From Cyanobacteria bacterium P01_A01_bin.123 (GTDB taxonomy: Bacteria > Cyanobacteriota > Cyanobacteriia > Phormidesmidales > Phormidesmidaceae): DNA of 64,000 nt. Below the pieces are notes generated by a model that did not search any database, was not told the DNA's origin, and saw only the letters and a program-made list of their open reading frames with translations. Location of the stretch: the NCBI GenBank assembly GCA_039815185.1, contig JBCBZT010000005.1:32001-96000 (forward strand), read 5' to 3'. The translations under genes were made by a program, and so were the position numbers. This document shows, piece after piece, positions 32,834 to 49,699 of this stretch. How positions within the stretch are numbered: the stretch's first letter is position 1; the number at the start of each line of letters is the position of its first letter.

Positions 32834-33111
32834 CAGAATTCAGTATATTCTAGTAAATTCTTTGTATAAAAAATACGGTCATATTCACAATCGAGATAAT
32901 CAGTACATACACAAGCGTAAAACCTTACTCAAATCAAAAGCTTACCCAGATCGGGTAGCTAAATGAACCCAAAGCAATCAGGCTCAATCCTTGTATCTGG
33001 TTTTGAATGTGATCCACGTCATTCATCTTGTAAGAAAAAGTGGGGAAAAAGCCTTTATGTGCCAGATTACGGACTGTCTTAGTTAGAAAAAAGCATTTTT
33101 AAGCACAATCA

Positions 33112-35973
33112 TTAAATAATGGCCCCTTGTCTAGCCAGTATGCGCTTTTCCACTTCAGAGAGCCCTTGTACCTGCTTGAGATTGAGCCCGGCATAAAAGG
33201 GTTGGTCGGTTTCAGCAGTTGTGATGGGCAAACTGGTGAATTTGCGTAACGGTTTACCACTCAGGGTTTCCCAAAGGGTTATGCCAAACCGAGTCCGGGT
33301 TAGCAGAACCTGCCCATCCCCACTAAAAACCAAGACAGAGGCAGACTGTTCAAATCCTGAAAGCGTTTGTAATGGGGCTTGACCCGGTTGGCTTAAATCC
33401 CAAATTTGAACCGTCCTGTTCTGGCCGCTGCTAGCCAAGAAGCGCCCGTTAGGACTGAAGGCAACGGTTACCACGTAGTCGCCATCGTCGCCTGTGTGGG
33501 ATAACACGCGAGAATCGGCTGGGGTCTGATCAAGACTCTCAATATGAATGCTGCGGTCATTGTACTCAGCCCATAAAACCCGTTCACGGGCGAGACAAAG
33601 GGTGGCTCGAATGGTGTAGTAAGCAGTCGAATGAATGGTTTGAATTGGGCGATCGCGGTCAATGTCCCAGATGAATGTCTTGCTATCGTCCCCACAGCTA
33701 ATCAAGTAGCGTGCTTCTAAATCGGCAGGGCTAAAGGTGAGGTGATGAACGCTGTCGCTGTGGGCACTGAAGACTTGCTTCGGTAGCCCAGTGGCACACT
33801 CCCAGATGACAATGGCACCATCTTGTCGGCCCGCAGCCAGGTAAACCCCATCGGGGCTAACTTGTAGGCAGGTGACGGGGCTGGGGTGATCCATTTCAAA
33901 GGGCATGGGATCAGATGAGCGCAACACATCCCAATAAAACTGAACCTGCCCCTGATCGTTGGCTACGACTAAAGCCCCTGAGTCTGGACAAAAGGCTAAT
34001 GCCTTAACGGGGTGACCATCGCCCGATAAAAAATTGATCAGCGCTAGCCGCTGCTGGGGCGCATATTGCCACACCCACACCCCACCCGTGGCATCACCAA
34101 TGGCCAATGTGCTGCCATCAGCGCTAATCGCGCCACAGATATCACCCCGTAGTCCAGGGGTAAAGATAATATCTTCCAACTGGGCTCGGGCGAAGTTCAC
34201 GCTGCGCACCAAGTTCCGGCGTAAATCAGCTTGGGCAATGTGCAACTCCGTTAACTCCCAATCACGGAGGTCTAGGTTGAGCGCGATCGCCAGGTTAATC
34301 AAGTTGCCTGCCGCATAGCTCCGCTGTTGGGGGTGTTGTCTCAGGTCCTCCAGTAGGGCTTCGAGGGCTTGTTTAAGCACACCTAGATCAGTGCCAATCT
34401 GATATCGTACGGCCCGCACAATTGCCTGCACGATTAGCTTGTTATGGGTTTGACGGGCCTGTTCAGCTGCCGTTGCCAACAAGATGGGATGACTATGGAG
34501 TAATTGAGGACGGCAGTCGAGCACCTCTTGAGAGACAATTGTGGCCAATCGTTCCAAAATCAACGGTCGCAACAGGGGCGGGGTGGGATAAATCAGTGAT
34601 GATGCCGGGTCTTCAATAATCAGATGGCGGCAGGTTAGCGATCGCAATACCCAACCGATAGAAATATTTTGTTCAGTGGTCTTTAACCGCTCCCGCAGCT
34701 TTTGACGGGGTTGAGGAGATAACGCTAACCAATACAAAACGGCTTGCTCGGCTACCAGCAGATCCCGGAAGGGGGACAAGAGCCGATCACTCAATCTCGT
34801 CAGGCTTTCAAGGTTTTCAGGTTTGAGCAGATGCTCTATGTTGCCATTGTGAAAGCGCTGAATTTCATTGACTGTGCCTTGTAGAAGTTCTGGATTGCCT
34901 GCACAAAGCGTGACTAATTCTTGACGGGTTTGGGGTGCCCCTTCTAAGTCAGGGAGGGTTGCCAACCATTGCAGCGCATCGGTTTCTGAAAACCCTGAAA
35001 TGGTCGCTTCAAAATACCGATTATCTGTACCCAATAAATTAGGTCTGACACGGCTAACCCAAATCACACAGCTCCGGTGATAACGCTCTGTCAACGCATC
35101 AAGTAATAGGGGGTAGCCCTGCTTTTCGCGATCGCGTTCACCAGTCCTTAGGGTCAGCACGTCCAGCGGCACGTCGAGTTCTTCAGCTTGATCCAAAACA
35201 ATCAAATACCGTTCTTGCCCCAACTGCCTAATCAATTGATCGACTAAGGCTGGTTCATTCGGCAAGTGTGTTGAGTCAATCGGCACTTGTAGAAACGCCA
35301 TAAACTCTCGATAGAGGTCAGCGACTGTTGCAACTCGATTAGCTCTGCGATAGAACACAGGGCGATCTGCCGGGATATCTCGCAATAGCTTTCCGAGTAA
35401 CCAGGTTTTACCCGAACCGCTGGGGCCATTGAGCACAACTAGCCGATGGTGATTAGCCGTCAAAATCGGTTGCAGTTCTACCAACTCTTGAGTTCGACCG
35501 TAGAAGGCCGGATTGTCGCAGGTGAGTTCTTGAATGTCTCTTTTGGGAGGCGATGGCGTTGCCAAAGGCTGGCTTTCAACGATGGGATTAACCCGCAGCG
35601 TTGACGTCGAAAAAGATGGTTGGCTATTAATCTCGGGGGAGGACCTTGACAATGGCTGTGACTTCTCAAACATCAAAGTCTCAACCGTGCTGCGAAAGGT
35701 ATATTTCGTTAAGCGTTGTTGATTCCAAGCCTTTTTGAGTGATTTCCAAAGCTTTGGTGCGGCATCCCTTTGGAGGGTACCTGGTGAGTAGCTACACTCC
35801 TCAGGACAAAAACCAGGAACATCGTCGTATCTCAAGTCTTTCCAAGCGGCTAACAAGACACAGCGCTCAGTCCGTTTTAGCCCCCTGCCTTCATGCTGTT
35901 GCAGCGTTTCAGCGACATACCGTAGAACGGATTGAAACTCCTCGTTGTCCATAATCTCACGTATCTGACGCAT
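33112..35973 (-). CDS. STAND (NB-ARC-like) ATPase with N-terminal HTH, pentapeptide-like linker and WD40 repeats
   Basis: Walker A GPSGSGKT, LIVLDQAE, YAAGNLINL, WD repeats (ASSGQNRTVQIWD). Confidence 0.85.
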   Translation of the reverse strand: MRQIREIMDNEEFQSVLRYVAETLQQHEGRGLKRTERCVLLAAWKDLRYDDVPGFCPEECSYSPGTLQRDAAPKLWKSLKKAWNQQRLTKYTFRSTVETLMFEKSQPLSRSSPEINSQPSFSTSTLRVNPIVESQPLATPSPPKRDIQELTCDNPAFYGRTQELVELQPILTANHHRLVVLNGPSGSGKTWLLGKLLRDIPADRPVFYRRANRVATVADLYREFMAFLQVPIDSTHLPNEPALVDQLIRQLGQERYLIVLDQAEELDVPLDVLTLRTGERDREKQGYPLLLDALTERYHRSCVIWVSRVRPNLLGTDNRYFEATISGFSETDALQWLATLPDLEGAPQTRQELVTLCAGNPELLQGTVNEIQRFHNGNIEHLLKPENLESLTRLSDRLLSPFRDLLVAEQAVLYWLALSPQPRQKLRERLKTTEQNISIGWVLRSLTCRHLIIEDPASSLIYPTPPLLRPLILERLATIVSQEVLDCRPQLLHSHPILLATAAEQARQTHNKLIVQAIVRAVRYQIGTDLGVLKQALEALLEDLRQHPQQRSYAAGNLINLAIALNLDLRDWELTELHIAQADLRRNLVRSVNFARAQLEDIIFTPGLRGDICGAISADGSTLAIGDATGGVWVWQYAPQQRLALINFLSGDGHPVKALAFCPDSGALVVANDQGQVQFYWDVLRSSDPMPFEMDHPSPVTCLQVSPDGVYLAAGRQDGAIVIWECATGLPKQVFSAHSDSVHHLTFSPADLEARYLISCGDDSKTFIWDIDRDRPIQTIHSTAYYTIRATLCLARERVLWAEYNDRSIHIESLDQTPADSRVLSHTGDDGDYVVTVAFSPNGRFLASSGQNRTVQIWDLSQPGQAPLQTLSGFEQSASVLVFSGDGQVLLTRTRFGITLWETLSGKPLRKFTSLPITTAETDQPFYAGLNLKQVQGLSEVEKRILARQGAII

Positions 35974-36228
35974 ACAGACTCTGACCTAGTAAAGAGTCTA
36001 ACGTGAAGTCACTGACTTTTGCTGACTTTTGAACAACTAACCTCTGCCCAAAACCGATTTTCACCGTCTTCACAACTGACTTTTTGTTAGGAGGTCAGTT
36101 ATTTTATCTGAGGACTTACTGACTCTATGCCCTGATCTCCTTCATGGAGTCATACATTTCCCTGCTTTACTTCTAAAAGAGCAGGGCTCCCTTTTACGCC
36201 TGTTATAAGTATTTTCCCTCAATTTTCT

Positions 36229-36300
36229 TAACTCTCTACTAACTTTCACTGACCTTTTTGATAACTTTCACTGACCTTTTTGTTGACTTTCACTGATGAC
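36229..36300. repeat. 22-bp tandem direct repeats (TAACTTTCACTGACCTTTTTGA, ~2.7 copies)
   Basis: Units at 36240, 36262 and partial at 36284. Confidence 0.85.
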
Positions 36301-36382
36301 GTTTAATGCTGGCAAATGTAGGATGTTAAATGATAGAGGGTTATATTATGGATCTAGAACGTAAACTTCTAATAGTTTATGC

Positions 36383-36424
36383 ATGCAATCAAGGAACATA
36401 TAAATGCAATCAAGGAACATATAA
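36383..36424. repeat. 21-bp perfect tandem duplication
   Basis: ATGCAATCAAGGAACATATAA x2. Confidence 0.9.
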
Positions 36425-36557
36425 GTTCTGATTGGGCAAGAATGTATAGCCCGCAAGCGCTTTTGGCTAAAGGTAGAATCTTGTTTTTTGTAAGGTTCTT
36501 TCTTGATTTGCATTTTACGGAAAGTTGCAGCCACTATTATGTTGTCTTTGAAGTAGA

Positions 36558-36917
36558 ATGATGGCTATTCTCTCTGGTAAGGATAATTTGAACAGTGTTG
36601 ATTACAGTGGCCTTGTTAAGGCTATTGTCACGCTAAATTTAAGAGAGCAACCTTCGTTGTATTTGGACACTGTTAAGCCTACCGATTTTTCTTCCCGATA
36701 CGCTTACAGACAGGCTCTTATTGATAAGCAAAACTTTTATACTGGTGAGTTGATTCAAAAAGTTAGGAAAGAATTGCAGAATATCGTTCCAAAAGTTTTC
36801 GGCGGTTCTTCAAGTTCAGTGTTTGTTATAGAGGGAACCATATCGCAAGTGGCGCAAGTAGAAGCGCTAGAAAGCGTAAAGCGAGTAGTGCTGGATGCAC
36901 CAATCCAGATGCATTGA
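36558..36917 (+). CDS. Standalone 119-aa protein homologous to the N-terminal domain of the neighbouring NACHT protein (propeptide/I9-like)
   Basis: PTDFSSRYAYRQALIDKQ vs PKNYKSRKAYREAAISRQ; GGSSSSVFVIEGTISQ vs GGQTSNVVTARGTVEQ. Confidence 0.75.
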   Translation: MMAILSGKDNLNSVDYSGLVKAIVTLNLREQPSLYLDTVKPTDFSSRYAYRQALIDKQNFYTGELIQKVRKELQNIVPKVFGGSSSSVFVIEGTISQVAQVEALESVKRVVLDAPIQMH

Positions 36918-37294
36918 ATAGTTCAATAAAGAAGTGCTTACCTTCCGCAATGTTGATTTTCCTTGCTAATTAGGAGGACTTCAGATTGTCTACGGGAAAC
37001 TGAATCTTATATCTACGGCGTACTAAGAGGCAGTTAGGGCATTATCCAAATCACTAGTTCATAGTTCATCTTTGATAGGAGTTTTTGCCTCAGTGTCCCT
37101 GGTCTCTTAGAGAGCGATAAGTGTCTGAATCGCTTATACGGCAGGCACCTTGAGTGATTTCGGTAAAACCTCTGGAAGCGCTTACTCCTTAATGCTTTAT
37201 GACTCCTGTCATCCGTTAGCAGATCAGTTGCCAACTCAGAATATCCTAAATGACTTTTTGCGATAGTATATGCTTTTTTGAGCAGATGGTGTGA

Positions 37295-38212
37295 TCATCC
37301 GTACGAGCTGATGCCAAAAGCGATGTAGTTGTATGGAATAAGCTGATCCCGACCGTAGTCTTTAACAATTTGTCCAGTGGTCGCGTCGTAGACCCAGTCT
37401 TTCCAATCCCAAGCGCGCTTCAAAGCCTCGGGAATCTGGACAGCGACATAAACGCCTTGAGCAAGTTGAGCCCCCATTGGGTTATTCCCAAAATCTAAGC
37501 CAATCTGGATATCCTGGACAGCAACATTTTTACGGCGCTTTGCAATTGACTTGGTCAAACCAACAGCCATCTCCGACAAAGGTCTTATAGCTGGTTGAAC
37601 GGTGGTAGCGAGCTGCAACCCTGCTTTGAATGCATCGGATTCGAGAAACTTAATGGCTTGCTCATCTTCTTCATTTTTTACATTGACGGTAAAGCATTTG
37701 AGAATTAGGCCGTCGTTGCCGATATTTATACCGAGAAATATTGGATAGTTTAAGATAGCTGCGCGTTCTCCCTCACGTACTCGATATGTACTGTTGAAAT
37801 GCAAATGCTCCGTGGCTTCGGGAAGAACATTCTGAGCATAAAAATCAAAAAGAATTTGATGGGTTCCACTACCTGGGTAAGACGCAACTCTCAATGCGTT
37901 AAGTGTGACTTTGATCTGGCGACCTTTTAAGGATAAGTCAGATGAAACATTGCTGGCAGAGCTAATAGGTATATCTCGGTTGTCAGCAATATCTGGAGGG
38001 ATATAACCGAACGTATAGGCTGTGTGTTGCCAAAGTCTGTTCTGAAAAGGCCAGGGCCTGCCTAAGCTCAATATTGTTACTTTTTCATCAGTAACTTCTT
38101 CTAGCGCCTCTGCTGAAACTTCGTCGCCCATCTCATATAACTTCGTTGCTGCCTGCTCAGGAGACATATTAGCAATTACGCATAAATCATCAAACCATTG
38201 ACTCGAAATCAT
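37295..38212 (-). CDS. Uncharacterised 305-aa protein, candidate effector of the S8-NACHT locus
   Basis: Co-oriented downstream of NACHT; beta-rich pattern with a central amphipathic helical pair. Confidence 0.8.
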   Translation of the reverse strand: MISSQWFDDLCVIANMSPEQAATKLYEMGDEVSAEALEEVTDEKVTILSLGRPWPFQNRLWQHTAYTFGYIPPDIADNRDIPISSASNVSSDLSLKGRQIKVTLNALRVASYPGSGTHQILFDFYAQNVLPEATEHLHFNSTYRVREGERAAILNYPIFLGINIGNDGLILKCFTVNVKNEEDEQAIKFLESDAFKAGLQLATTVQPAIRPLSEMAVGLTKSIAKRRKNVAVQDIQIGLDFGNNPMGAQLAQGVYVAVQIPEALKRAWDWKDWVYDATTGQIVKDYGRDQLIPYNYIAFGISSYG

Positions 38213-38213
38213 T

Positions 38214-38249
38214 GATTTTATTTTAAGAAACGATTTTATTTTAAGAAAC
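38214..38249. repeat. 18-bp perfect tandem duplication
   Basis: GATTTTATTTTAAGAAAC x2, immediately before the 38212 start codon. Confidence 0.9.
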
Positions 38250-38357
38250 GTTTGAAGGTATTTTATACGGATAGATAGATTCTGTACTCAATTTTCAATC
38301 TACTTCTACGTGTGGTTGCGCTTTGTAATTTTTAGAACACGGCATATCTATTTTAAG

Positions 38358-41051
38358 CTAGCAAACTGTTATCATTTTAGCTCTAACTTCTTCAACAATC
38401 TTAGTTGAGACACGAGAAGCGGCTTTAATACATAGCGACAAGATGTAGTTAGCATAAAAATACTGCTCTATATGTACTGATTCCTCTAAGCTGATTGATG
38501 TAATGTGTTTTGGCAAGTCAAAAAGTTCAATGCAAATTTGCTTCAATGAGTTAGAGGCCATATCAATATATTCAACGAGATGCCTTCTTCTCAATGTCTT
38601 TTCGGATTCAGATACTGGTCTTTGGCTGCTAGGCAAAGTGATGGTCAAATTCTCCAAACCAGGTAAAATATCGTGAAGTTTAGCTTCTCTAAATATAGAA
38701 ATGTGAGTTGATCTTTGAACTTGCTCCTTGGACATGTGATGTATACTCTGCATAGCATTTTTGATCTTTTGATTGCGATGCTGACGCAACTCTTTCTGTA
38801 AGGTTTTGGTTCTATCCAAAGCTAAGCTAAGCGTTCTTTCAATCTCCGATATGCGTGACAAGTGTAGTTTATTGTTGCTTATTCCATCTCTTGCAATTTC
38901 GCTAACAGTTACAAGCAAATCAACGATACTTCTCAAAATCACAAAATCACTAGAAAGTTCTGTTTCATAAGGGAATCTTGCTTCGTATGGCCAATGTTGT
39001 GACCAATAGATTGACGAGTTAATATTCTTTTTTAAATCTTGATTTTTCTCTTCTACTACCAAATAATCTAATGCACATTTCAATAAAAAAGTACGTTCTT
39101 TAAGCCCCGCATAATTCTCTCTACTATGATGGCTACATTTCTCTGATGCCCAAGAAAGAAGACTTGTTAACTTGTCAATCTTAGCTAAGGTCTTTGTTTC
39201 ATCGAGAATGCACCGGATCATCTCATCTGCTCCTGGATTGAATAGCATGAGTCCAGAAACAAGAGGAAACACTGAACGCCAGCGTTTGTTGGTTAGACTA
39301 TCTTTAACTAACTTTTTGAATCCATATGATTCATGCACGAATTTTGCAACTAAGTACTCTTGAAAGGTTAAATGAGAAAATAAATAAATAACTTCCCCTG
39401 ATTCCGTGGAATGTTCTACCAAGATGCCTTGAGTTGTTGTCAATTCCTTCAAAACAGAGTTGCTTGTTAAGTTCAGAGGTGAGTTTCTGTTGCTATCTAT
39501 AAACTCTTGTATTTGGCCATTGAGTGAATTTTTTGTTGCAAAAAGGTGGTTGGATTTAAAGCTTTCAAATGCTATTTCTGCTAAGAGTGTCTCTTCCATA
39601 TGCAGCTCAAGCTTCTTAAAAATTCCTTGTGATTTAGCCGATTTCTCCGCTGGCCATTCCTTTAGGAGGATATGTAGTGCTTGCTTATAGAGAAAAACTC
39701 TGTTTTCGGGGAAATCACGATAGTAATCGTAGATTAAACAGAGATATGTTAGAAACAAGGGTGTCCTTGACAGTTCCCTTGCATTAGCATTCTCGGGCCT
39801 TTGCAAAAGGTTGAAGCAGTTGTCGGCTGTTTTTTCTGAGATATGCTCCTCGGAGTTGAACCATTTTCTAATAAATTTTAAAACCTTTTTATTGTCGAAA
39901 TCAACGATTCTAGCTTTGCTAAAATTATCAATGCATTCTATGTTTTCAACTGCCTGATAAGCTGCGGCCCTGCATGAAATGATTATCCTATTGTGCATGT
40001 AATTTTCGACAAGTTGTCTGATATTATCCTTTACAACTTGCAAATTTGATTCGGAAACTTCATCCAATCCGTCTAGTATGATTATTAATTTTCCAAGCCT
40101 AAGTGCAGCACTAGAAAATTCAAGGGCACAACGAATACCAACTGCTCTAAATTCTTTTGCAATAACTCTGACGATATCTGGTGTATCATTGGAGAGTTTT
40201 TTCAAGTCGAGGAAGAGTGGTACGCTATAGCTATTGTTCTCGTTCAACTTTCTGATGGAGCCTAAAGCAATCATCTTCAGAAAAATGGACTTCCCAGAAC
40301 CAGCATCCCCAAAGATAATCATGTGCTTATTTTCTTTGAAGAAGGAGAAGGCAGAAGTGCTTTCTCCTTCTCCTCGTGGCATTGGCATTCTGTTCAAAAA
40401 TGTATGCGATAATTTCTTGACAGAAGACTTTTGGAGAAAGTTGCCGACGTCGCACACTTCAATATCTGTATAAACGGAGCTTAGAGGTCTTGCGTCAGAC
40501 ATGCCTAAAACGCTTAGGCTTCCATACCTGCTCTCATATGACTCAACGAATTTTTTCGCGCCTCCATGGATAATCTGTTCATCCTCATTCAACCCCTGAA
40601 ATTCTAATAACTCTTGTATGAGATTGCTTAGCCTATCTATTACTTTATGTTGATGAGTTTGATCAATAATTATATCTTCATCAAGTTTGCCTTTGATGAT
40701 GCCAGGTAACGTCAAAACTTTTCTAAATTGTTCAACGGTTCCGCGTGCAGTAACAACATTGCTAGTTTGTCCACCTGCAAGCTCAATTGAAAACTCTTTG
40801 ATCTTATCTTTTGTTTTGCCAATGCTATGGTTAATCAACTCAGTTTGTCTAGAAATCGCAGCTTCTCGATATGCTTTTCTAGACTTGTAATTCTTAGGAT
40901 CTATACTGTCTTTATACTGAACTTCCTGGCTTATATTCCCTGTGTCAAGATGCAGAATAAGTGTCAAAAACCGATTTTTTTTGTCTTGCAAGAGGATTTC
41001 TTTGAGTTCATCATCCACTTTAGAAAGAATTGCCTTACTTATCTTTTGCAT
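38358..41051 (-). CDS. NACHT (NLR-like STAND) ATPase with propeptide-like N-terminal domain and C-terminal helical domain
   Basis: Walker A GDAGSGKS, Walker B IILDGLDE, ISCR, TPLFL, FSHLTFQEYLVA; C-terminal EQYFYAN.IL..C..AA.RVS. Confidence 0.9.
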   Translation of the reverse strand: MQKISKAILSKVDDELKEILLQDKKNRFLTLILHLDTGNISQEVQYKDSIDPKNYKSRKAYREAAISRQTELINHSIGKTKDKIKEFSIELAGGQTSNVVTARGTVEQFRKVLTLPGIIKGKLDEDIIIDQTHQHKVIDRLSNLIQELLEFQGLNEDEQIIHGGAKKFVESYESRYGSLSVLGMSDARPLSSVYTDIEVCDVGNFLQKSSVKKLSHTFLNRMPMPRGEGESTSAFSFFKENKHMIIFGDAGSGKSIFLKMIALGSIRKLNENNSYSVPLFLDLKKLSNDTPDIVRVIAKEFRAVGIRCALEFSSAALRLGKLIIILDGLDEVSESNLQVVKDNIRQLVENYMHNRIIISCRAAAYQAVENIECIDNFSKARIVDFDNKKVLKFIRKWFNSEEHISEKTADNCFNLLQRPENANARELSRTPLFLTYLCLIYDYYRDFPENRVFLYKQALHILLKEWPAEKSAKSQGIFKKLELHMEETLLAEIAFESFKSNHLFATKNSLNGQIQEFIDSNRNSPLNLTSNSVLKELTTTQGILVEHSTESGEVIYLFSHLTFQEYLVAKFVHESYGFKKLVKDSLTNKRWRSVFPLVSGLMLFNPGADEMIRCILDETKTLAKIDKLTSLLSWASEKCSHHSRENYAGLKERTFLLKCALDYLVVEEKNQDLKKNINSSIYWSQHWPYEARFPYETELSSDFVILRSIVDLLVTVSEIARDGISNNKLHLSRISEIERTLSLALDRTKTLQKELRQHRNQKIKNAMQSIHHMSKEQVQRSTHISIFREAKLHDILPGLENLTITLPSSQRPVSESEKTLRRRHLVEYIDMASNSLKQICIELFDLPKHITSISLEESVHIEQYFYANYILSLCIKAASRVSTKIVEEVRAKMITVC

Positions 41052-41054
41052 AAC

Positions 41055-42296
41055 TCACCATGCTTGAACTAGTCCGGAACCTTGTCGTGCCTGATTGTCA
41101 AGAGATTTGCATCTCGAACAAAGCATTTCTTTTAGTTCGTCTAGTTGCAATTGAGGGTTTTCCCCTAATATCAAGGCTGCTATACCGGAAACAATAGCCG
41201 TTGCCATAGATGTTCCCGTCTCGGCTTCATAATTTCCATTTGGAACACAAGAGAAGATTTCAAAGCCAGGAGCAACCAAGGAAGGGATTTCACATCTTCC
41301 GTGATTATCTAAAGTGTACGTGCCGCCGCCGCTGAACCCAGCTACTTTATTTTTTTTGTCGGTTGCACCCACAGAAAGAACTTCAGGATAGATTGCAGGA
41401 CTCTTAATAGTACTTGCACCATCATTTCCTACTGCAGAGACTAAAAGAACACCGGATGCTGCGACGCTCGCTACTATATCTTCCAGCGCCCCGCCATCGT
41501 CCTCAATTTCGATGCCTGCTGATACATTGACGATGCTGACTTCTGGTTTCGTACAAACGTGGTCTAATGCTCGAATCAGTCGCACTAGAGATCCCTTACC
41601 CCTAGGAAGCACAACGCAACTTAGTAACGAAGCATTTTTAGCGATACCAGTTTTACTACCGCAGATTAATCCCGCAATATGTGTGCCATGTTTATGAGTA
41701 TCTCTGGAGTATTTTTGTCGATTGAAATTTAGGCTCTCACCATCAAACTCATACGCTGATATGGTTGTATTGCGAAAGTCTTCATGCCTTGAGTCTATAC
41801 CAGTATCAATGACCGCCACTGTAACATCAGCGCCGAATTGACTGTTTCTATGAAGCCTCAATGTGTCATAGCCAATCTCTCTGAGATGCCATAAATGACT
41901 CTCATCGACTTGTTCTGTATATCGTGGATTTCTGGTCTTTAGCGAGTTAGGGTATATTGCCGCTGACTCTGGAGATATTAGCCTTATAGGCTGGTCGCGG
42001 ACAATTTTCAGCCCCGTTAAATCTTTTTGGATTTTTTCAACTTCGTCTTCTGGTAAGTCGAGGATACTGGCACCAGTAACGCTTGGATCCATTGGGCCTT
42101 TTATTACTTCTAATCTATGCTCTTGCTTAGCTTCCGAAAGCCACGCCTGCAATTCCACCTGATGTGGTTCTTCGCGATTTAGCTGAATAATACGCTCTAC
42201 CTGCTTTCGTCTACTAGTTGGATCCAGTCCAATTGAATCAAAGCTAAGGGGATGGACAGATGAAGCTTCTTCAGGACGAACAATATATATTGCCAC
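41055..42296 (-). CDS. S8 subtilisin-like serine protease, no signal peptide
   Basis: Catalytic triad VAVIDTG, HGTHIAG, GTSMAT and oxyanion AVGN; GTG start. Confidence 0.93.
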   Translation of the reverse strand: MAIYIVRPEEASSVHPLSFDSIGLDPTSRRKQVERIIQLNREEPHQVELQAWLSEAKQEHRLEVIKGPMDPSVTGASILDLPEDEVEKIQKDLTGLKIVRDQPIRLISPESAAIYPNSLKTRNPRYTEQVDESHLWHLREIGYDTLRLHRNSQFGADVTVAVIDTGIDSRHEDFRNTTISAYEFDGESLNFNRQKYSRDTHKHGTHIAGLICGSKTGIAKNASLLSCVVLPRGKGSLVRLIRALDHVCTKPEVSIVNVSAGIEIEDDGGALEDIVASVAASGVLLVSAVGNDGASTIKSPAIYPEVLSVGATDKKNKVAGFSGGGTYTLDNHGRCEIPSLVAPGFEIFSCVPNGNYEAETGTSMATAIVSGIAALILGENPQLQLDELKEMLCSRCKSLDNQARQGSGLVQAW

Positions 42297-42301
42297 GGTA
42301 G

Positions 42302-42347
42302 ATCAGAGAGATAATATACTACAAATCAGAGAGATAACATACTACAA
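42302..42347. repeat. 23-bp tandem duplication (1 mismatch)
   Basis: ATCAGAGAGATAAYATACTACAA x2, immediately before the S8 start codon. Confidence 0.9.
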
Positions 42348-42542
42348 ATCAATATATTGAGATGCATGCCTTTGTCTAGTCCAGTAGATACCTATACATG
42401 CTTTGCGCCAAAAGCATACGCATACCTCTTTACCTGAAAAGATCGAAGACAACCCACAATCTATGAGTTTCCCATATAGTACAGATACTATTTTCAACTT
42501 ACAAGGATATATATTTCAATACATCGTAGAGAACTTTGATTA

Positions 42543-43034
42543 TCAGCATTTTCTCTGCTGGCGAATCCAGCGGGTTAAGTGTAACCCTAAGAAATAACTA
42601 ACAACGGCACAAAATAGCCCCATTACAAAACATCCCAAAAACAGGGTGATGGTAATATCAGCGCCCATGCTCATCCAAGATTTCAGGGCATCTACATCTT
42701 CAAAAGCATTAGCTTGAGCCTGATTGCCCAAGATCAGCCGCCCCACCCGATAATTAAAAAAGTAGATCGGTACATAGGTAAACGGATTGCTGATCCAGGT
42801 GGCGGCAGCAGCCATAATTTTGTTGCCCCGAATCACCGCAGCAATGACAACTCCAATGATGGTTTGCAAACCAAACAGCGGGAAAAGCCCAGCAAAAACG
42901 CCTGCAGCAATGCCCCGGGAAATTTCTTGCGGGCTGCCACGCATCCTGACAAAGCGCAGGTAAAAATAGCGTAAGCGACGCCGCCAGCGCTTTTGGGGAG
43001 AGTAGGATTTAAGATGCTGGCGTGGGTGAGTCAC
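42543..43034 (-). CDS. DUF2062 membrane protein
   Basis: GSPQEISRGIAAGVFAG.FP, WISNPFT..PIY. Confidence 0.88.
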   Translation of the reverse strand: MTHPRQHLKSYSPQKRWRRRLRYFYLRFVRMRGSPQEISRGIAAGVFAGLFPLFGLQTIIGVVIAAVIRGNKIMAAAATWISNPFTYVPIYFFNYRVGRLILGNQAQANAFEDVDALKSWMSMGADITITLFLGCFVMGLFCAVVSYFLGLHLTRWIRQQRKC

Positions 43035-43225
43035 TCAAGGGCTCCCGTAATTGACCAAACTCTATTCTAAAGGGCGACCTCCGCCAGGGTTGGAAAACTC
43101 ATTTAGACTCATTTCAACTGAATCAAGGTTCAGCATCGCTTCACAATAGGTTCACAATGATAAGGGTTGCCTTTGTGTCAACGTTGGCCTGCTAGGCTGG
43201 AAAATCGAGGATTGTTGAGCCGTCC

Positions 43226-44656
43226 GTGACCGTCAATTCTAAAACCGTAAAACTTAAAACGACAAACGCTGCTGCCTCCATTGTGCAGGGCGAAACGATT
43301 GCCGCGATCGCGACCGCAGTGGTTCCCCAACAAGGTAGCGTGGGAATCGTACGGCTTTCTGGCGTAGACGCGATCGCCATTGGTAAAACCCTGTTTCAGG
43401 CACCGGGCAATCAACCCTGGGAGTCCCACCGGATTCTCTATGGCTTTGTGCGTCATCCCCAAACCCAGGCAACGGTTGATGAAGCATTGCTACTCCTAAT
43501 GCGATCGCCCCGGTCTTATACCAAAGAAGATGTGGTGGAGTTCCACTGCCATGGGGGCATCATGGCGGTACAGCAGGTGTTGCAGTTGTGTGTGGCCCAG
43601 GGGGCACGGCTGGCAGAGCCGGGGGAATTTACGCTGCGTGCCTTTCTTAACGGCCGGCTAGATCTGACTCAAGCCGAAGGCATTGCTGATTTGGTCGGGG
43701 CGCGATCGCCCCAAGCCGCCCAAATAGCCCTAGCAGGGGTGCAGGGTAAGTTAGCGGGTGCGATTCGTCATTTTCGGGCCACTTGCTTGGACATTTTGGC
43801 AGAGGTAGAAGCCCGAATCGATTTCGAAGATGACCTACCGCCTTTGGATGAAGCAGCTGTTCAGCACCAGCTCAACGCCGTCTTCGCTCAGGTGAATCAG
43901 ATTCTGGCTACTGCCCATCAGGGGGAACTGCTGCGTGCTGGCATCAAAGTCGCCATTGTGGGGCGTCCCAATGTGGGCAAGTCCAGCTTGTTGAATGCCT
44001 GGAGCCGCAGCGATCGCGCCATTGTCACTGACCTCCCCGGCACCACCCGCGACGTCGTCGAATCTCAGTTGGTCGTGGGCGGGATTCCGGTGCAGGTGCT
44101 TGACACCGCAGGCATTCGTGATGCTACCGACCGGGTGGAAAAGTTAGGGATTGAGCGATCCCAAGCGGCGGCTCAGGCCGCAGATTTGGTGCTGTTGGTG
44201 ACTGATGCTCAAGCAGGCTGGACGGTAGAAGATGGGCTGCTTTATGAGCAGGTGAAGGGGCGTCCGCTGATTCTCGTGCTAAATAAAGTGGATTTAGTTG
44301 CGGGGGATGTCAGTGCAGAGGTTCTGCCTGGAATCGGTCTGCCCATGGTTTACACGGCTGCTGCCCAGAACCAAGGCATAGTGGATTTGGAAGCAACCAT
44401 TTTGCAGACCATCCAAACTGACAATCTCGTTGCCGCCAATACTGATCTAGCCATCAACCAGCGCCAAGCTGCTGCCCTGACTCGCGCCCAAGTCGCCCTG
44501 ACTCAAGTGCAGCAAACTTTGCAAAATTCCTTGCCCCTGGATTTCTGGACGATTGATTTACGTATCGCCATCCAAGCGCTGGGGGAAATCACCGGAGAAG
44601 ATCTGACTGAATCGATGCTGGGACAAATCTTTAGTCGGTTTTGTATTGGGAAATAA
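43226..44656 (+). CDS. mnmE: tRNA modification GTPase MnmE/TrmE
   Basis: [34 protein letters not shown]. Confidence 0.97.
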
Positions 44657-47092: not shown

Positions 47093-49699
47093 TTAATTGA
47101 TCTGGGGAGGCTGAGGTTTGAGCTGGCGTAGGCTCAAGGCTGACTCTAGGAAGCCCTTCATTTCTTGAGCATGGGGATAGTTAGGGAAAATGGTTAACAG
47201 ATCTTGTAAATCTTGGATGGCTCCTTTGAGAAAAAGGACAGGCGCTTCTCGAGAAAGAGCTTCTTGATAAAAGTGCTTTCCTTTGTCGAGCTTACGCGAG
47301 ACTAAATGATAAAGAGCCAGATTAAATGTATGGCGATGATTATTGGGGACTTTCTCATGATTTTTCTGAGCAATTTGAATGGCTTGAGTTAAATGGGCTT
47401 TGGTGCTTTCTATCTGTTTTAGACCTAGATAAGCTAGGGCTTGTCTGTAGTAGTCCCAATCATTGTTTGTATCCATTGAGGCTTTGAAGTCTAGAAGCGC
47501 TTCATCATATTGGCGTAATAGCAAATAGACCTCGCCGCGATTTGCAGCTGCCCGTTTATACTCAGCATCCAACTCAATAGCTCGATTAAAATCTTGTAGA
47601 GCTTCTTTATAAGACTTTATAGAGTGATAAGTTCGACCACGTCCTGTGATCGCCCACTTATCCTCAGGATCTAGTTCAATGGCACGGTTAAAGTCTTCCA
47701 ATGCCTCCTCGTAGGATTCTAAAAATCGATAGATTGAACCACGTTGTGCAATCGCCCACTTATATTCAGGATCTAGTTCAATAGCACAATTGAGGTCTGT
47801 CAGTGCTTCCTCATAGCGCTCCATAAAACGATAGGTTATACCACGATGTGCGATCGCCCACTTATCTTCAGAATTCAATTCAATAGCTCGACTGAAGTCT
47901 GTCAGTGCTTCCTCATAACGCTCCATAAAACGATAGGTTATACCACGATGTGCGATCGCCCACTGATACTCAGGTTCAAGTCCAACGGCACAATTAAAAT
48001 CTTGAAGTGCTTTTTCATGCGCTGACATTAGCCGATAAACGTTACCCCGCCAAGAATAAATGATTGAATATTTCTCCGCTTTAACAACCTCTGCATTCAA
48101 AAGATCGGTCAACACTGTTACCGTTTCTCCATAGCCATCATCTTCATAAGCTTGAAGCCCCTTCATCAGACGCTTACCCCAATCACATAAGGCTTTAACC
48201 TCGAGCTCTTGACCTGCTTGCAACATCACAGCAGCCCACTGCTGGGCAAAGTCGCTATTTTGTTTCAGCGCATCTAGAAACTGATTGAGTGCAACGGCAA
48301 GTTTCTGTTGGGGGTGACTACATAGCTGATGATATAGCCGTCGCAGCGCATAGCTTTGCCAAGTCGCATCGGCATAGCGAACCTTATCATCCTCTAAATC
48401 AAGCTGTTGAGCGCAGCCGTCATAATACGCCGCCAACACCCCATGCTTCTCAGCCCAACTTTTCGCAGACTCGCGCTGCTGATAACGCAACATCTGAGGC
48501 CGCACCACATCGTGATATGCCCAACCATCACTACGCTCACCTACAAAGGGCATGGTTTTGAGCCAGCCATACAAAGCATCAACATCGGTCTCCTCATCTA
48601 CTAGCTGAGCAACCACATCCCGATTCAAGCTTTGAGGTAAGGCCGCATCCAAAGCCAACTGCCGTTTGGCCGGATCCTCTACCCACTTCAGGAAGCGCTC
48701 CACTGCCGTACCGCTCGCTTCCCCCACCTGCACCGGATCATTTGGCGAACTCTCTGCCAAAATCGCCAGCAGCAAGGGCAACCGCCCCGACACATCCAAA
48801 ATCGTGCTGATCACCTCTGCATTGGTTACCCCTTTACGCTGCAAAAACTGAGTTGCCTCTTCTGCCGTAAACGGTTCCAAGGGAAACTGCACTGGGTCAT
48901 ATCCCGACCAATCATTGGGATTCAAGCGATCGCGTCCGGCAATCACCCAGATGCAGTTGGGCGGCAAAACGCCATGGCGTTCTGCCAAAATATCTAGCAG
49001 CCAGGGCTCGACCACCTCACCCGTGCGCTCATAGGTGTCAAACAGCAACACCATTTGCCGATCGGCAATGGTTTCTAGCCCTTCTAAAAACAGCGGAGTC
49101 AAGACACCAAGTGGTTCATTCACCAATTGAATCTCATCTTTATTCTTCAGCTTTCGGCTGACAAACGTTGCCCATTCCCCAGCCCCCTCCACCAAGCCCT
49201 CTTCATCGACAAAATCCAGGGCGGCACCCGCAATCGGCACTTGCCGTCCTAACTTTAGCCCAACCTTTGTGACCGTTTTGCCCACAAAGGCAGAAAATCC
49301 CTGGGGAGCCTCTGGATCGGTTTCTAACTCCTCACGCTTGTGGCGATAAACCTTATAGCGCTCACTAAACTTGGCTAGCGGCTGTCCCTGATCTGCCAGC
49401 TGTTTGGCAAATGCAGCCATGACCTCTGGCACGGTGGTAATTGCCTCATCAATTCGCGCCACGACATGCTGATGCCCTTTAGCAATTGCTTCAAACTGGC
49501 GTAGCAGGGTTGTTTTACCCACGCCGCCCTGTCCCCAAATATTGAAGAGAAATGCACCGGGATAGGCAAAGCCATCCACTATTTGCAAATGGGTCAGGTT
49601 GTGTTGAAACGTTTCCAACTGCTCAACCCGACCGACAAAGGCCGAACGCTGCTGAGCACGAATCAGATCTTGGCGGCTAGGACGCTTTTTGGGGGGCAT
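47093..49699 (-). CDS. P-loop (STAND-like) ATPase with TPR repeats
   Basis: FVGR, GQGGVGKT, LLFDTYE, IAGR, GRLPL; TPRs AIAHRG.TY...YEEAL.DF..AIEL. Confidence 0.9.
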   Translation of the reverse strand: MPPKKRPSRQDLIRAQQRSAFVGRVEQLETFQHNLTHLQIVDGFAYPGAFLFNIWGQGGVGKTTLLRQFEAIAKGHQHVVARIDEAITTVPEVMAAFAKQLADQGQPLAKFSERYKVYRHKREELETDPEAPQGFSAFVGKTVTKVGLKLGRQVPIAGAALDFVDEEGLVEGAGEWATFVSRKLKNKDEIQLVNEPLGVLTPLFLEGLETIADRQMVLLFDTYERTGEVVEPWLLDILAERHGVLPPNCIWVIAGRDRLNPNDWSGYDPVQFPLEPFTAEEATQFLQRKGVTNAEVISTILDVSGRLPLLLAILAESSPNDPVQVGEASGTAVERFLKWVEDPAKRQLALDAALPQSLNRDVVAQLVDEETDVDALYGWLKTMPFVGERSDGWAYHDVVRPQMLRYQQRESAKSWAEKHGVLAAYYDGCAQQLDLEDDKVRYADATWQSYALRRLYHQLCSHPQQKLAVALNQFLDALKQNSDFAQQWAAVMLQAGQELEVKALCDWGKRLMKGLQAYEDDGYGETVTVLTDLLNAEVVKAEKYSIIYSWRGNVYRLMSAHEKALQDFNCAVGLEPEYQWAIAHRGITYRFMERYEEALTDFSRAIELNSEDKWAIAHRGITYRFMERYEEALTDLNCAIELDPEYKWAIAQRGSIYRFLESYEEALEDFNRAIELDPEDKWAITGRGRTYHSIKSYKEALQDFNRAIELDAEYKRAAANRGEVYLLLRQYDEALLDFKASMDTNNDWDYYRQALAYLGLKQIESTKAHLTQAIQIAQKNHEKVPNNHRHTFNLALYHLVSRKLDKGKHFYQEALSREAPVLFLKGAIQDLQDLLTIFPNYPHAQEMKGFLESALSLRQLKPQPPQIN

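Follow-up and report, generated by a model that had tools for sequence, protein, structure and literature searches.

Gene content and genomic setting

The window (the whole 64,000-nt stretch of DNA analysed) harbours four intact genes in a block of low GC content, and all four open reading frames described by the first-pass annotation were recovered from the ORF list:

35974-42542, no strand: GC-poor, HIP1-free block with the four genes, flanked by a NACHT-WD40 gene and DUF2062/mnmE
36558-36917, plus strand: gene of a 119-aa protein, convergent with the other three genes
37295-38212, minus strand: gene of a 305-aa protein from an unnamed, widespread family
38213-38357, minus strand: 145-nt spacer between the NACHT and 305-aa genes
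38358-41051, minus strand: gene of a NACHT-NCH2 STAND ATPase (897 aa)
41055-42296, minus strand: gene of an S8 subtilase (413 aa, GTG start)

Between the S8 stop codon, whose last base is 41055, and the NACHT ATG at 41051 lies the 3-nt gap reported before. The AT-rich, HIP1-poor character of the block was likewise recovered: GC content is 0.365-0.44 across about 36.0-42.5 kb compared with 0.47-0.58 in the flanks, and the stretch 35974-42542 contains none of the window's 65 HIP1 sites (GCGATCGC), whereas the mean density predicts about 6.7. A genome of the same genus retains DUF2062-MnmE-Lnt and, over the 3.86 kb next to DUF2062, lacks all four genes. Judged from sequence, the block is probably accessory and horizontally acquired. 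A 14,612-nt Logan contig from an independent assembly spans both block edges with 0 differences over 33000-43980; its sequencing run may be the genome's own source sample. In run X2 of the same study, contigs 95-99% alike over the flanks have a depth of 13-36, the cover of the block is 0-3.6 and no joining contig was found. Two other STAND genes adjoin the block. An 18-bp exact tandem duplication (38215-38250) in the spacer ends 2 nt before the ATG of the 305-aa gene. The promoter/terminator scan detected no terminator-like site in this spacer and no excess of either signal in the block (16 and 4 sites compared with 17.4 and 5.2 in shuffles).

A conserved S8 subtilase-NACHT gene pair

The two largest proteins of the block are organised as follows:

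41964-42296, minus strand: S8 residues 1-111, its own propeptide-like N-terminus
41058-41963, minus strand: S8 residues 112-413, catalytic domain with Asp164, His203, Asn291 and Ser363
40647-41051, minus strand: NACHT protein residues 1-135, N-terminal domain with a subtilase-propeptide-like beta-alpha-beta-beta-alpha-beta fold
39852-40322, minus strand: NACHT protein residues 244-400, NACHT NTPase
38370-38654, minus strand: NACHT protein residues 800-894, NCH2 in the helical C-terminal region

The S8 protein is a member of Pfam Peptidase_S8 (PF00082; 157.1 bits, gathering score 21.8, E 8e-46). Its catalytic triad and oxyanion Asn are all present and unchanged in nine orthologues, and hydropathy analysis revealed no signal-peptide-like or transmembrane stretch; the protein thus appears as the intact, signal-less S8 enzyme that had been described, and its sequence marks it as a cytoplasmic protease. 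Its own propeptide-like N-terminus had been overlooked. Atlas places S8 residues 1-115 near I9/CspB-prodomain clusters (scores 0.86-0.88, a lead only), a profile of this N-terminus matched nothing meaningful among PDB sequences, and its hhalign comparison with the NACHT N-terminal domain was not significant (probability 3%, E 0.014, last three secondary-structure elements only). The downstream protein matches Pfam NACHT (49.3 bits, cut-off 26.7) and NCH2 (29.5 bits, cut-off 27) and contains Walker A (residues 248-255) and Walker B (residues 325-331) motifs, as found in NACHT STAND NTPases. No repeat-type sensor was found in it, and its score for the NCBIfam model EruA (NF058535) is 47.8 bits at a cut-off of 1000.

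The link between the two genes became apparent from 24 cyanobacterial NACHT homologues, each compared with a 1.5-kb flank. All nine homologues with the N-terminal domain are directly preceded on the same strand by a full S8 homologue (E 1e-39 to 1e-84), whereas none of the 15 without this domain has one within the flank. The S8 and NACHT reading frames overlap by 4-29 nt in six of the nine pairs. A profile of the N-terminal domain found it in 11 of 401 cyanobacterial genomes, namely those nine, the window's own and one with a partial match. These neighbourhoods show that the S8 and NACHT genes are a conserved pair whose reading frames usually overlap.

The N-terminal domain of the NACHT protein as a predicted prodomain

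The AF2 model of the N-terminal domain (pLDDT 85.2, pTM 0.72) superposes in VIA onto the propeptide ProN-Tk-SP (3afg_B; Z 10.7, rmsd 2.7, 86 aligned), and subtilisin-type propeptides account for 15 of the 16 highest rows. Pfam Inhibitor_I9 (PF05922) gave no match at E<=0.1 in the NACHT N-terminus or the 119-aa protein, and the profile of the domain family retrieved nothing meaningful from PDB chains; the assignment as a propeptide is a structural one, based on the predicted fold and a predicted docking with the tail in the active site. A complex of the domain with S8 residues 112-413 was predicted with an ipSAE of 0.89 in three of three runs (best of three controls 0.11), a score that may stem from solved subtilisin-propeptide structures memorised by the model and was obtained without S8's own N-terminus, which would compete for the same site. 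Of solved complexes, 116 of 157 attain this ipSAE mark, as do 2 of 215 mismatched pairs. The runs share at least 94% of the contacts, and the pLDDT of the partners is at least 82. In the predicted pose the sheet of the N-terminal domain packs against two surface helices of S8, and its tail (residues 124-132) runs into the cleft lined by His203, Asn291 and Ser363, the contacted S8 residues being 203, 290-291 and 359-363.

The earlier proposal that the N-terminal domain of the NACHT protein engages the subtilase is therefore favoured by the S8 co-occurrence, the propeptide fold and the predicted binding. That the adaptor resembles a protease prodomain had escaped notice. As the domain is predicted to sit on the catalytic domain in the manner of a propeptide, the NLR is predicted to hold its protease by an inhibitor-enzyme contact and not by a like-with-like contact of the CARD or EAD type.

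The 119-aa protein was proposed to be a free copy of the same domain, and BLASTP bears this out, with 30% identity to NACHT residues 46-127 over 82 aa (E 2e-11). Both copies of the domain in the 8.09-Mb genome lie in this block, one being the 119-aa protein and the other the NACHT N-terminus. The family comprises 42 representatives at E<=1e-3, with free forms of about 95-150 aa and NACHT-fused forms of 650-914 aa; the nearest relative of the 119-aa protein is P0124 (57% identical). Like the 305-aa protein, it has no family in Pfam, PADLOC or NCBIfam. We propose that it acts in trans as an inhibitor of S8 or as a decoy.

The 305-aa protein and its family

Three regions can be distinguished in the 305-aa protein:

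Residues 1-42: acidic helical N-terminus (net charge -8 over residues 1-55), from charge and hydropathy
Residues 43-56: variable linker, poorly modelled
Residues about 57-305: C2-like beta-sandwich core with a conserved helical insert (residues 181-225)

The AF2 model (pLDDT 76.9, pTM 0.77) suggests a relationship of the core to C2 domains, which make up nearly all of the top 50 rows in the wide VIA search (about 45 C2 entries, Z 5.7-7.8, a middling range, over residues ~96-305); Pfam C2 has no match in the protein. Hydropathy indicates no membrane segment, and Atlas returned unnamed clusters only. A gasdermin fold was considered and gained no support: gasdermins are absent from the Foldseek PDB rows (none at E<=1e-3) and from the wide VIA rows shown, and neither PADLOC nor Pfam yielded a gasdermin match.

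At E<=1e-3 the protein has 768 relatives, an unnamed, phylum-spanning family found in cyanobacteria, Chloroflexota, Planctomycetota, Acidobacteriota, proteobacterial lineages, Bacteroidota and some archaea. The first-pass annotation had missed this large family and its different usual partner. Among the 64 informative loci, i.e. those with at least 3.5 kb upstream, the family gene lies in 33 directly behind a same-strand gene for a CHAT(caspase-like)-STAND-TPR protein of one orthologous family. Of 14 such partners tested with Pfam, CHAT was detected in 14, AAA_16 in 11 and TPR in 13; PADLOC and NCBIfam gave no system-level match for them. Other proteases beside family members are S8 (L055), TPR-CHAT (L042, L051), CHAT-nSTAND1 (L050) and papain C1 (L064). 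The genome of the window contains a single gene of the family and no orthologue of the CHAT-STAND-TPR protein (best match 18.7 bits). A like-with-like adaptor between the N-termini of the 305-aa and CHAT-STAND-TPR proteins was rejected (hhalign probability 0.5%), as was the nearby 868-aa STAND-TPR gene as a partner in trans, which has no similarity to CHAT-STAND-TPR.

The first-pass annotation had seen in the 305-aa protein a protease-activated effector. Because the family normally stands directly behind CHAT-STAND-TPR protease genes, this role is plausible. The block fits a class defined here as the protease-STAND plus 305-aa-family unit, in which S8 and NACHT are followed after 145 nt by the same-strand 305-aa gene.

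Co-occurrence of the four genes

The first-pass annotation had named the absence of the four-gene combination elsewhere as a refuting outcome, and this is largely what was observed. The S8+NACHT pair occurs alone in nine genomes, and none of 90 other 305-family loci contains S8+NACHT or a free prodomain copy. One other set is indicated: the closest database homologues of the four proteins (identities of 64% for S8, 55% for NACHT, 73% for the 305-aa and 57% for the 119-aa protein) are each recorded on a metagenomic contig of 7,438 nt from the same two sources, and a single contig appears to hold all four, as deduced from the identical length and sources. What stands of the first-pass annotation is a protease-NLR module with an N-terminal adaptor, a free adaptor copy and a plausible effector; a recurring four-gene set is largely unsupported. 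As far as gene neighbourhoods tell, the four-gene combination is rare and the block joins two recurring modules.

The block might bring together two unrelated neighbours. The S8+NACHT pair would be complete, with the subtilase as sole effector degrading host or phage proteins, and the 305-aa protein would be an orphan, deprived of its former CHAT-STAND-TPR partner and either inactive or acting by itself. The 305-family gene is absent from all nine genomes with the pair (each at least 99% complete; the positive control worked), so that the pair is self-sufficient and the 305-aa gene could be a bystander. The closest relatives of the 305-aa protein with readable flanks (61-71% identity; L001, L002, L004, L013, L114-L119) all come with a CHAT-STAND-TPR gene, and about a third of the fully flanked 305-family loci have no protease nearby. 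The CHAT partners abut or overlap the family gene, and 145 nt intervene here; the window's 305-aa protein also deviates at 11 of the 138 columns that are well conserved, equalling the highest count among 30 sequences, which could reflect relaxed selection. However, the open reading frame is unbroken, none of the 67 residues invariant in the family is altered, and a Gln is shared with P0007, a putative syntenic relative, where the other seven close relatives aligned have Arg. The homologues that appear to reside on one contig argue, at 55-73% identity, for a set kept through substantial divergence. Moreover, S8-related genes bracket the 305-aa gene, since the 119-aa prodomain copy lies beyond it. 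On balance we consider chance neighbourhood unlikely.

Relationship to known systems

The block matches no described system in PADLOC or NCBIfam. IetAS (PADLOC IetS; NCBIfam IteS) likewise pairs an S8 protease with an ATPase in defence, but the ATPase of the window is a NACHT STAND protein and not IetA; IteS scores 28.2 bits at a cut-off of 900, the IetS models match partially (best E 9e-10) and IetA gave no match, in keeping with the distinction drawn in the first-pass annotation.

Closer parallels are found among gasdermin systems. In the bacterial gasdermin operons described by Johnson et al. (10.1101/2021.06.07.447441) a protease of the CHAT, C14 or another type, in many cases fused to NACHT, TPR, LRR or WD40, stands beside a latent effector that is cleaved to kill the cell, and the 305-aa family holds the gene position of the gasdermin behind CHAT-STAND-TPR genes. 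In contrast to gasdermin, its core is C2-like, the likely removable piece is N-terminal instead of C-terminal, and the protease in the window is a separate S8 gene. In the fungal HET-Q2/HET-Q1 and S8/NACHT/WD40 NLR-proteases treated by Clave et al. (PMC8851545), a cytoplasmic S8 enzyme that has no signal peptide, and in some cases carries a fused NACHT, triggers a death effector encoded next to it, and one effector family can be switched on by either S8 or CHAT; both protease types, some of them joined to NLR modules, are described as interchangeable activators of adjacent gasdermins (PMC8851545; 10.1101/2021.06.07.447441). There, however, S8 and the NLR form one fused protein, and HET-Q2 is described without an I9 propeptide, whereas in the window the proteins are separate, the predicted link is a propeptide-like domain on the NLR and the proposed effector shows no match to gasdermins. 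The CARD-NLR-protease gasdermin systems reported by Wein et al. (PMC10312443) share the multi-gene arrangement of NLR, protease and swappable effector with a small adaptor domain coupling NLR to protease, and effectors are swapped and adaptor-only proteins interfere in them. They differ by their CARD-like, like-with-like adaptor and trypsin-like proteases, where here a prodomain is predicted to bind the catalytic domain, and by an adaptor-only gene that is phage-encoded instead of locus-encoded.

Subtilisin propeptides and I9 inhibitors (PDB 3afg, 1spb, 2z58; PMC6993865, as far as reported there) share the beta-alpha-beta-beta-alpha-beta fold, the tail-in-active-site pose predicted here and the existence of a free-standing form; the N-terminal domain of the window differs by its fusion to a NACHT ATPase and by having no detectable Pfam Inhibitor_I9 membership. 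Anti-phage bNACHT proteins (Kibby et al., 10.1101/2022.07.19.500537) have a NACHT, an N-terminal effector or adaptor position and a helical C-terminal region in common with the window protein, but the N-terminal peptidases listed for them are caspase, trypsin, transglutaminase-like and SMT4, and the main text names no subtilase or propeptide. A STAND survey (Nature 2026, PMC13581612) mentions no subtilase, CHAT or propeptide in the main text or the supplement files examined. A propeptide-NACHT fusion or the 305-aa family was not found described in the literature searched; bioRxiv supplements (e.g. Kibby Table S1) may list such an architecture.

Proposed mechanism

We consider it about an even chance that the block constitutes a cytoplasmic protease-NLR conflict module, most likely for anti-phage abortive infection, in which a prodomain serves as adaptor and a protease activates the effector. 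In the resting state, every NACHT monomer would bind and block a single mature S8 molecule. On sensing a trigger, the helical C-terminal region would induce ATP-dependent oligomerisation of the NACHT protein, and the gathered S8 molecules might then degrade the blocking domains in trans, in the way subtilisin escapes its propeptide, and produce a burst of active protease. The 305-aa protein would be the latent killing effector; a cut in its variable linker might remove the acidic N-terminal helices and free the C2-like, probably membrane-directed core. S8 would in this lineage take over the role of the CHAT protease, and the prodomain-only 119-aa regulator would mop up stray S8 and so set the firing threshold.

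The sign of the regulation may also be the opposite. The N-terminal domain and the 119-aa protein would then provide a docking or foldase platform, S8 would be a zymogen active only when recruited to the oligomerised NLR, and the 119-aa protein would be a competitive docking decoy. Propeptides also act as folding chaperones, caspases on CARD platforms mature by induced proximity, and S8's own propeptide-like N-terminus could maintain the zymogen state until recruitment. NLR-adaptor-protease recruitment is, moreover, the rule in the CARD systems described (PMC10312443). The predicted pose nevertheless places the tail of the N-terminal domain in the active-site cleft, like the inhibitory, product-like pose of solved propeptide complexes, and from Plasmodium a free protein resembling a propeptide has been reported to inhibit its subtilase potently (PMC6993865), so that we judge an activating platform improbable. 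The block might also have a function outside immunity: regulated intracellular proteolysis could serve a multicellular cyanobacterium in its development, in kin discrimination or in cell death under stress, or S8 could be a processing enzyme accompanied by its chaperone. Such a function would agree with the enrichment of conflict-type STAND/caspase systems in multicellular bacteria, whose roles are described as experimentally open (PMC7159879), and with the lack of a known defence gene inside the block or a PADLOC match, but is less likely still for an accessory, GC-poor, HIP1-free block that is missing from a same-genus genome, is adjoined by two other STAND genes and shares the architecture of NACHT, protease and swappable effector with known defence systems.

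Returning to the conflict module with its inhibitory prodomain, we tentatively extend the proposal beyond this locus, as a possibility to be taken with some reserve: an NLR that holds a subtilase via a built-in prodomain, buffered by a prodomain-only protein, may fire C2-like death effectors, and hundreds of CHAT-STAND-TPR "apoptosome-like" proteins across bacteria and some archaea may have in the 305-aa family their equivalent of gasdermin.

Implications

NLRs and proteases are known to be coupled by fusion, as in fungi and many bacteria, and by like-with-like adaptors such as CARD and EAD. The arrangement proposed here would, if true, add a third coupling, in which the prodomain both docks and silences the enzyme and thereby provides a simple threshold mechanism. 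A replacement of CHAT-STAND-TPR by S8+NACHT would imply that an effector can be retained while its sensors and proteases change, and such a module swap would parallel the S8/CHAT alternation at fungal gasdermins. The 305-aa orphan family, which has no Pfam or NCBIfam model, would gain a likely role, and the theme of a protease releasing a killer would, if the proposal is true, extend beyond gasdermins. The locus appears to wire a bacterial "inflammasome" in a novel manner.

Organization of the block and its surroundings

The four genes lie in a block of accessory DNA (35974-42542) whose GC content of 0.365-0.44 (at ~36.0-42.5 kb) contrasts with 0.47-0.58 outside and which contains none of the 65 HIP1 sites of the window. 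A NACHT-WD40 gene borders the block at one edge, and DUF2062, mnmE and lnt genes follow at the other. In a genome of the same genus (85% complete), DUF2062-MnmE-Lnt are syntenic with the window, and none of the four genes is present in the 3.86 kb beside DUF2062; they were not found in two genomes of the same family either. A Logan contig of 14,612 nt, from a run that may be the source sample of the genome itself, crosses both edges of the block without any difference to the window, and the junctions are thus not the artefact of one assembler.

Rereading of the ORF coordinates placed the four genes where the first-pass annotation had located them.

Genes of the block
41055-42296, minus strand: S8 subtilase gene, 413 aa, GTG start
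38358-41051, minus strand: NACHT gene, 897 aa, start 3 nt past the S8 stop
37295-38212, minus strand: 305-aa gene, separated from the NACHT gene by a 145-nt spacer
36558-36917, plus strand: 119-aa gene, convergent with the other three

Pfam assigns the 413-aa protein to Peptidase_S8 (157 bits) and the 897-aa protein to NACHT (residues 244-400) and NCH2, the NACHT C-terminal helical domain (800-894), while the 305-aa and 119-aa proteins match no family in Pfam, PADLOC or NCBIfam. The S8 catalytic residues Asp164, His203, Asn291 and Ser363 are all intact, as are the Walker A and Walker B motifs of the NACHT protein. Hydropathy analysis indicated no signal-like or membrane-spanning stretch in any of the four proteins.

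The spacer 3' of the NACHT gene carries an exact 18-bp tandem duplication (38215-38250), and 2 nt separate its end from the ATG that starts the 305-aa gene. Two small ORFs without a Pfam match are also present in the block, one of 60 aa (36379-36561, plus), which shares its last 4 nt with the start of the 119-aa gene, and one of 66 aa (37034-37234, minus). The adjoining gene at 33112-35973 (minus) has normal GC content and encodes a 953-aa NACHT/AAA_22 + WD40 STAND protein with an N-terminus of ~175 aa to which no domain is assigned; it is a second NLR-like gene beside the island.

The S8-NACHT cassette

The NACHT protein has matches in 118 of 401 cyanobacterial genomes, and the flanks of the best 24 foreign loci were read. 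Nine of these 24 homologues (33-34% identity) reach the N-terminus of the query, and each of the nine is directly preceded, on the same strand, by a full S8 homologue (E 1e-39 to 1e-84); in six of the nine pairs the overlap between the two ORFs is 4-29 nt. The other 15 homologues begin only at query residue ~130-160, and none has an S8 gene within its 1.5-kb flanks. A profile of the N-terminal domain (residues 1-135, termed N-domain) detects only 11 of the 401 genomes, namely the nine with S8 pairs, that of the window and one with a partial match. The presence of the N-domain therefore tracks that of the protease. Judged by these sequence comparisons, S8 and NACHT form a conserved cassette tied together by the N-domain. 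One pair, at locus L111 (G168:C1:1572000-1589000), is decayed: S8 is split into frames of 284 and 68 aa and NACHT is cut to 604 aa.

The N-domain as a predicted protease prodomain

The AlphaFold2 model of NACHT residues 1-140, calculated from a 36-sequence alignment (pLDDT 85.2), has a beta-alpha-beta-beta-alpha-beta core. A Foldseek search with the N-domain model gave top rows rich in subtilase prodomains, none of them at E<=1e-3. Structural comparison by VIA aligned 86 residues with the N-propeptide of Tk-SP, a subtilisin-like protease of Thermococcus (Z 10.7, rmsd 2.7), and 15 of the top 16 rows are propeptides of subtilisin, CspB or related proteins with Z 6.8-7.8, compared with 6.6-7.2 for the unrelated ferredoxin-like folds NapD and NikR. 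By sequence, the N-domain does not belong to Pfam Inhibitor_I9, and its family profile has no match among PDB sequences. The modelled fold points to a protease prodomain at the N-terminus of the NACHT protein.

This assignment can be set beside the predicted complex between the S8 catalytic domain (residues 112-413, 9-row alignment) and N-domain residues 1-135. The ipSAE was 0.89 in three of three runs versus 0.11 for the best of three controls, a mark reached by 116 of 157 solved complexes and by 2 of 215 mismatched pairs. At least 94% of the contacts are common to the runs, and the partner pLDDT is at least 82. The sheet of the N-domain packs against the S8 helices 233-254 and 266-283, and residues 124-132 run past His203, Asn291 and 359-363 of S8, so that the predicted pose corresponds to the classical one of a propeptide. 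As solved subtilisin-propeptide complexes exist, the high score may partly reflect model memory.

The N-terminal 111 residues of S8 itself, which precede the modelled catalytic domain, have Atlas scores of 0.86-0.88 to I9 and CspB-prodomain clusters and align structurally with the N-termini of I9-bearing S8 proteins, both taken as leads. Together with the conserved pattern, these leads suggest that the segment is probably the protease's own propeptide, which would compete with the N-domain for the same site.

The 119-aa protein had been proposed to be a free copy of the N-domain, and its alignment to NACHT residues 46-127 (30% identity, E 2e-11) bears this out. It and the NACHT N-terminus are the only two copies of the domain in the 8.09-Mb genome. 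An exhaustive HMMER search retrieved 42 representatives at E<=1e-3, which are of two kinds: free forms of ~95-150 aa, and proteins of 650-914 aa with the domain at the N-terminus, named NACHT NTPases by their sources. Of the 401 cyanobacterial genomes, that of the window is the only one in which the free form was detected. Since the free and fused copies are only ~30% identical both in the window and in the closest relatives (database proteins P0124 and P0170), the duplication is old and both copies have been kept.

The 305-aa protein and its usual partners

The AlphaFold2 model of the 305-aa protein (pLDDT 76.9, pTM 0.77) consists of N-terminal helices (12-41), a poorly modelled linker (43-54) whose length varies across the family, and a beta-sandwich into which a conserved helical segment (181-225) is inserted. 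No Foldseek row reached E<=1e-3. VIA, run against all representatives, returned nearly exclusively C2 domains, including that of perforin, over residues ~96-305 (Z 5.7-7.8), a consistent but middling match for the modelled core; gasdermins are absent from these VIA matches. Residues 1-55 carry a net charge of -8, compared with -1 for the remainder.

At E<=1e-3, 768 relatives of the protein were retrieved, here called the 305-family, and identity across phyla amounts to 53-57%. The analysis covered 75 loci of species-representative genomes and a further 16 of metagenomic origin (of which L113 duplicates L013). Neighbour clustering revealed one dominant partner in 35 of the 75 loci, mostly encoded directly upstream on the same strand. 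It is a protein of ~1,100-1,290 aa with CHAT (14 of 14 tested), AAA_16 STAND (11 of 14) and TPR (13 of 14) regions, without a match to a described system in PADLOC or NCBIfam. HMMs built from these CHAT-STAND-TPR proteins detected an orthologue directly upstream on the same strand in 33 of the 64 loci whose upstream sequence extends over at least 3.5 kb, and nearby in another arrangement in six further loci. The relatives most similar to the 305-aa protein (61-71% identity) have this partner in all cases with readable flanks. Other proteases beside 305-family genes are TPR-CHAT (L042, L051), CHAT-nSTAND1 (L050), CHAT-WD40 (L031) and S8 (L055), and roughly a third of the fully flanked loci have no protease nearby. 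The N-terminus of the 305-aa protein has no homology to that of the CHAT partner, which would suit a protease substrate rather than an adaptor-coupled partner.

Several loci deviate from the common arrangement. Two paralogous CHAT-STAND-TPR genes flank some 305-family genes, one on each side (L020 8972-12562; L023 329-3961). In the acidobacterial locus L064 (4015-10990), the 305-family gene follows two Hsp70-like genes, one with TPR, and a papain-like C1 peptidase is encoded two genes on; here the same proposed effector is accompanied by another pairing of NTPase and protease. At L046 (928-8270), the gene lies among those of a TIR protein, an SNF2-like helicase, a short CHAT protein and a MoxR-like AAA_5 ATPase. 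A partial match at L074 (7402-8234) overlaps frames matching the CHAT region and may represent a fusion or a decayed locus. The family reaches archaea, as the sources of two members are named as a Hodarchaeota MAG (P0099) and a Conexivisphaerales archaeon (L054). In the window, ~5 kb from the block, a gene at 47093-49699 (minus) encodes an 868-aa AAA_16 + TPR STAND-like protein, which is unrelated to the CHAT-STAND-TPR partners.

Possible cooperation of the two modules

The first-pass annotation had treated S8, NACHT, the 305-aa protein and the free N-domain copy as one conflict system. The S8-NACHT pair indeed recurs, whereas the four-gene set is absent from the 90 other 305-family loci, none of which has the pair or a free prodomain copy. 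Conversely, none of the nine genomes with the pair has a 305-family gene according to the profile that does find the gene of the window. The two genes therefore make up a full system by themselves, whose effector is presumably the subtilase. In favour of joint working of the modules, the genome of the window has a single 305-family gene and lacks a CHAT-STAND-TPR orthologue, the best match reaching 18.7 bits.

Joint working is also favoured by the intact, co-oriented 305-aa gene, by a spacer in which a terminator scan found no terminator-like site, and by the S8-related genes bracketing the 305-aa gene. The most telling point is a shared database record: for each of the four proteins, the closest database homologue (S8 64%, NACHT 55%, 305-aa 73% and 119-aa 57% identity) is listed with one 7,438-nt contig, and the two sources are the same throughout. 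Such a contig would just hold the four-gene set, and we infer co-location from these records. The 305-aa protein and its relative listed with this contig have Gln at a position occupied by Arg in the seven other close relatives of the alignment. P0239 (S8 homologue, 40% identity) and P0011 (305-family, 70%), for both of which the longest contig listed measures 4,772 nt but whose sources differ, may constitute a further S8 and 305-aa pairing.

Mechanistic implications

Four elements of the following scheme rest on data, namely the S8-NACHT pairing, the N-domain fold, its predicted pose and the association of the 305-family with proteases; the direction of regulation, the cleavage, the trigger and the outcome are what we infer. 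Through the prodomain-like domain at its N-terminus, the NACHT ATPase would keep matured S8 docked and blocked. When the helical C-terminal region senses a trigger, the ATPase might oligomerize in an ATP-dependent manner, upon which the clustered S8 molecules would destroy the blocking domains in trans and yield active protease. In the lineage of the window, S8 might also cut the linker of the 305-aa protein and remove its acidic N-terminal helices, and the freed C2-like, probably membrane-directed core would then kill or arrest the cell. The free 119-aa prodomain might buffer stray protease.

The overall logic of the block is that of the gasdermin-protease operons of bacteria (10.1101/2021.06.07.447441) and of fungi. 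Fungal S8 and CHAT proteases, some of them in S8/NACHT/WD40 fusions, activate adjacent gasdermins, and HET-Q2 is without an I9 propeptide (PMC8851545). In CARD-NLR-protease systems effectors are swappable and adaptor-only antagonists exist (PMC10312443). Comparison with PADLOC and NCBIfam confirmed that the block differs from IetAS. A NACHT protein bearing an adaptor of prodomain fold, a partner gene that encodes a prodomain alone and the 305-family are described neither in the main texts searched nor in seven supplement files of a 2026 STAND survey; bioRxiv supplements, outside the search, may bear on this point. The feature noticed in the first pass is real and its central idea stands; a more fitting description of the system is that of a rare hybrid between two modules that are commoner, and its most novel element is the prodomain adaptor.
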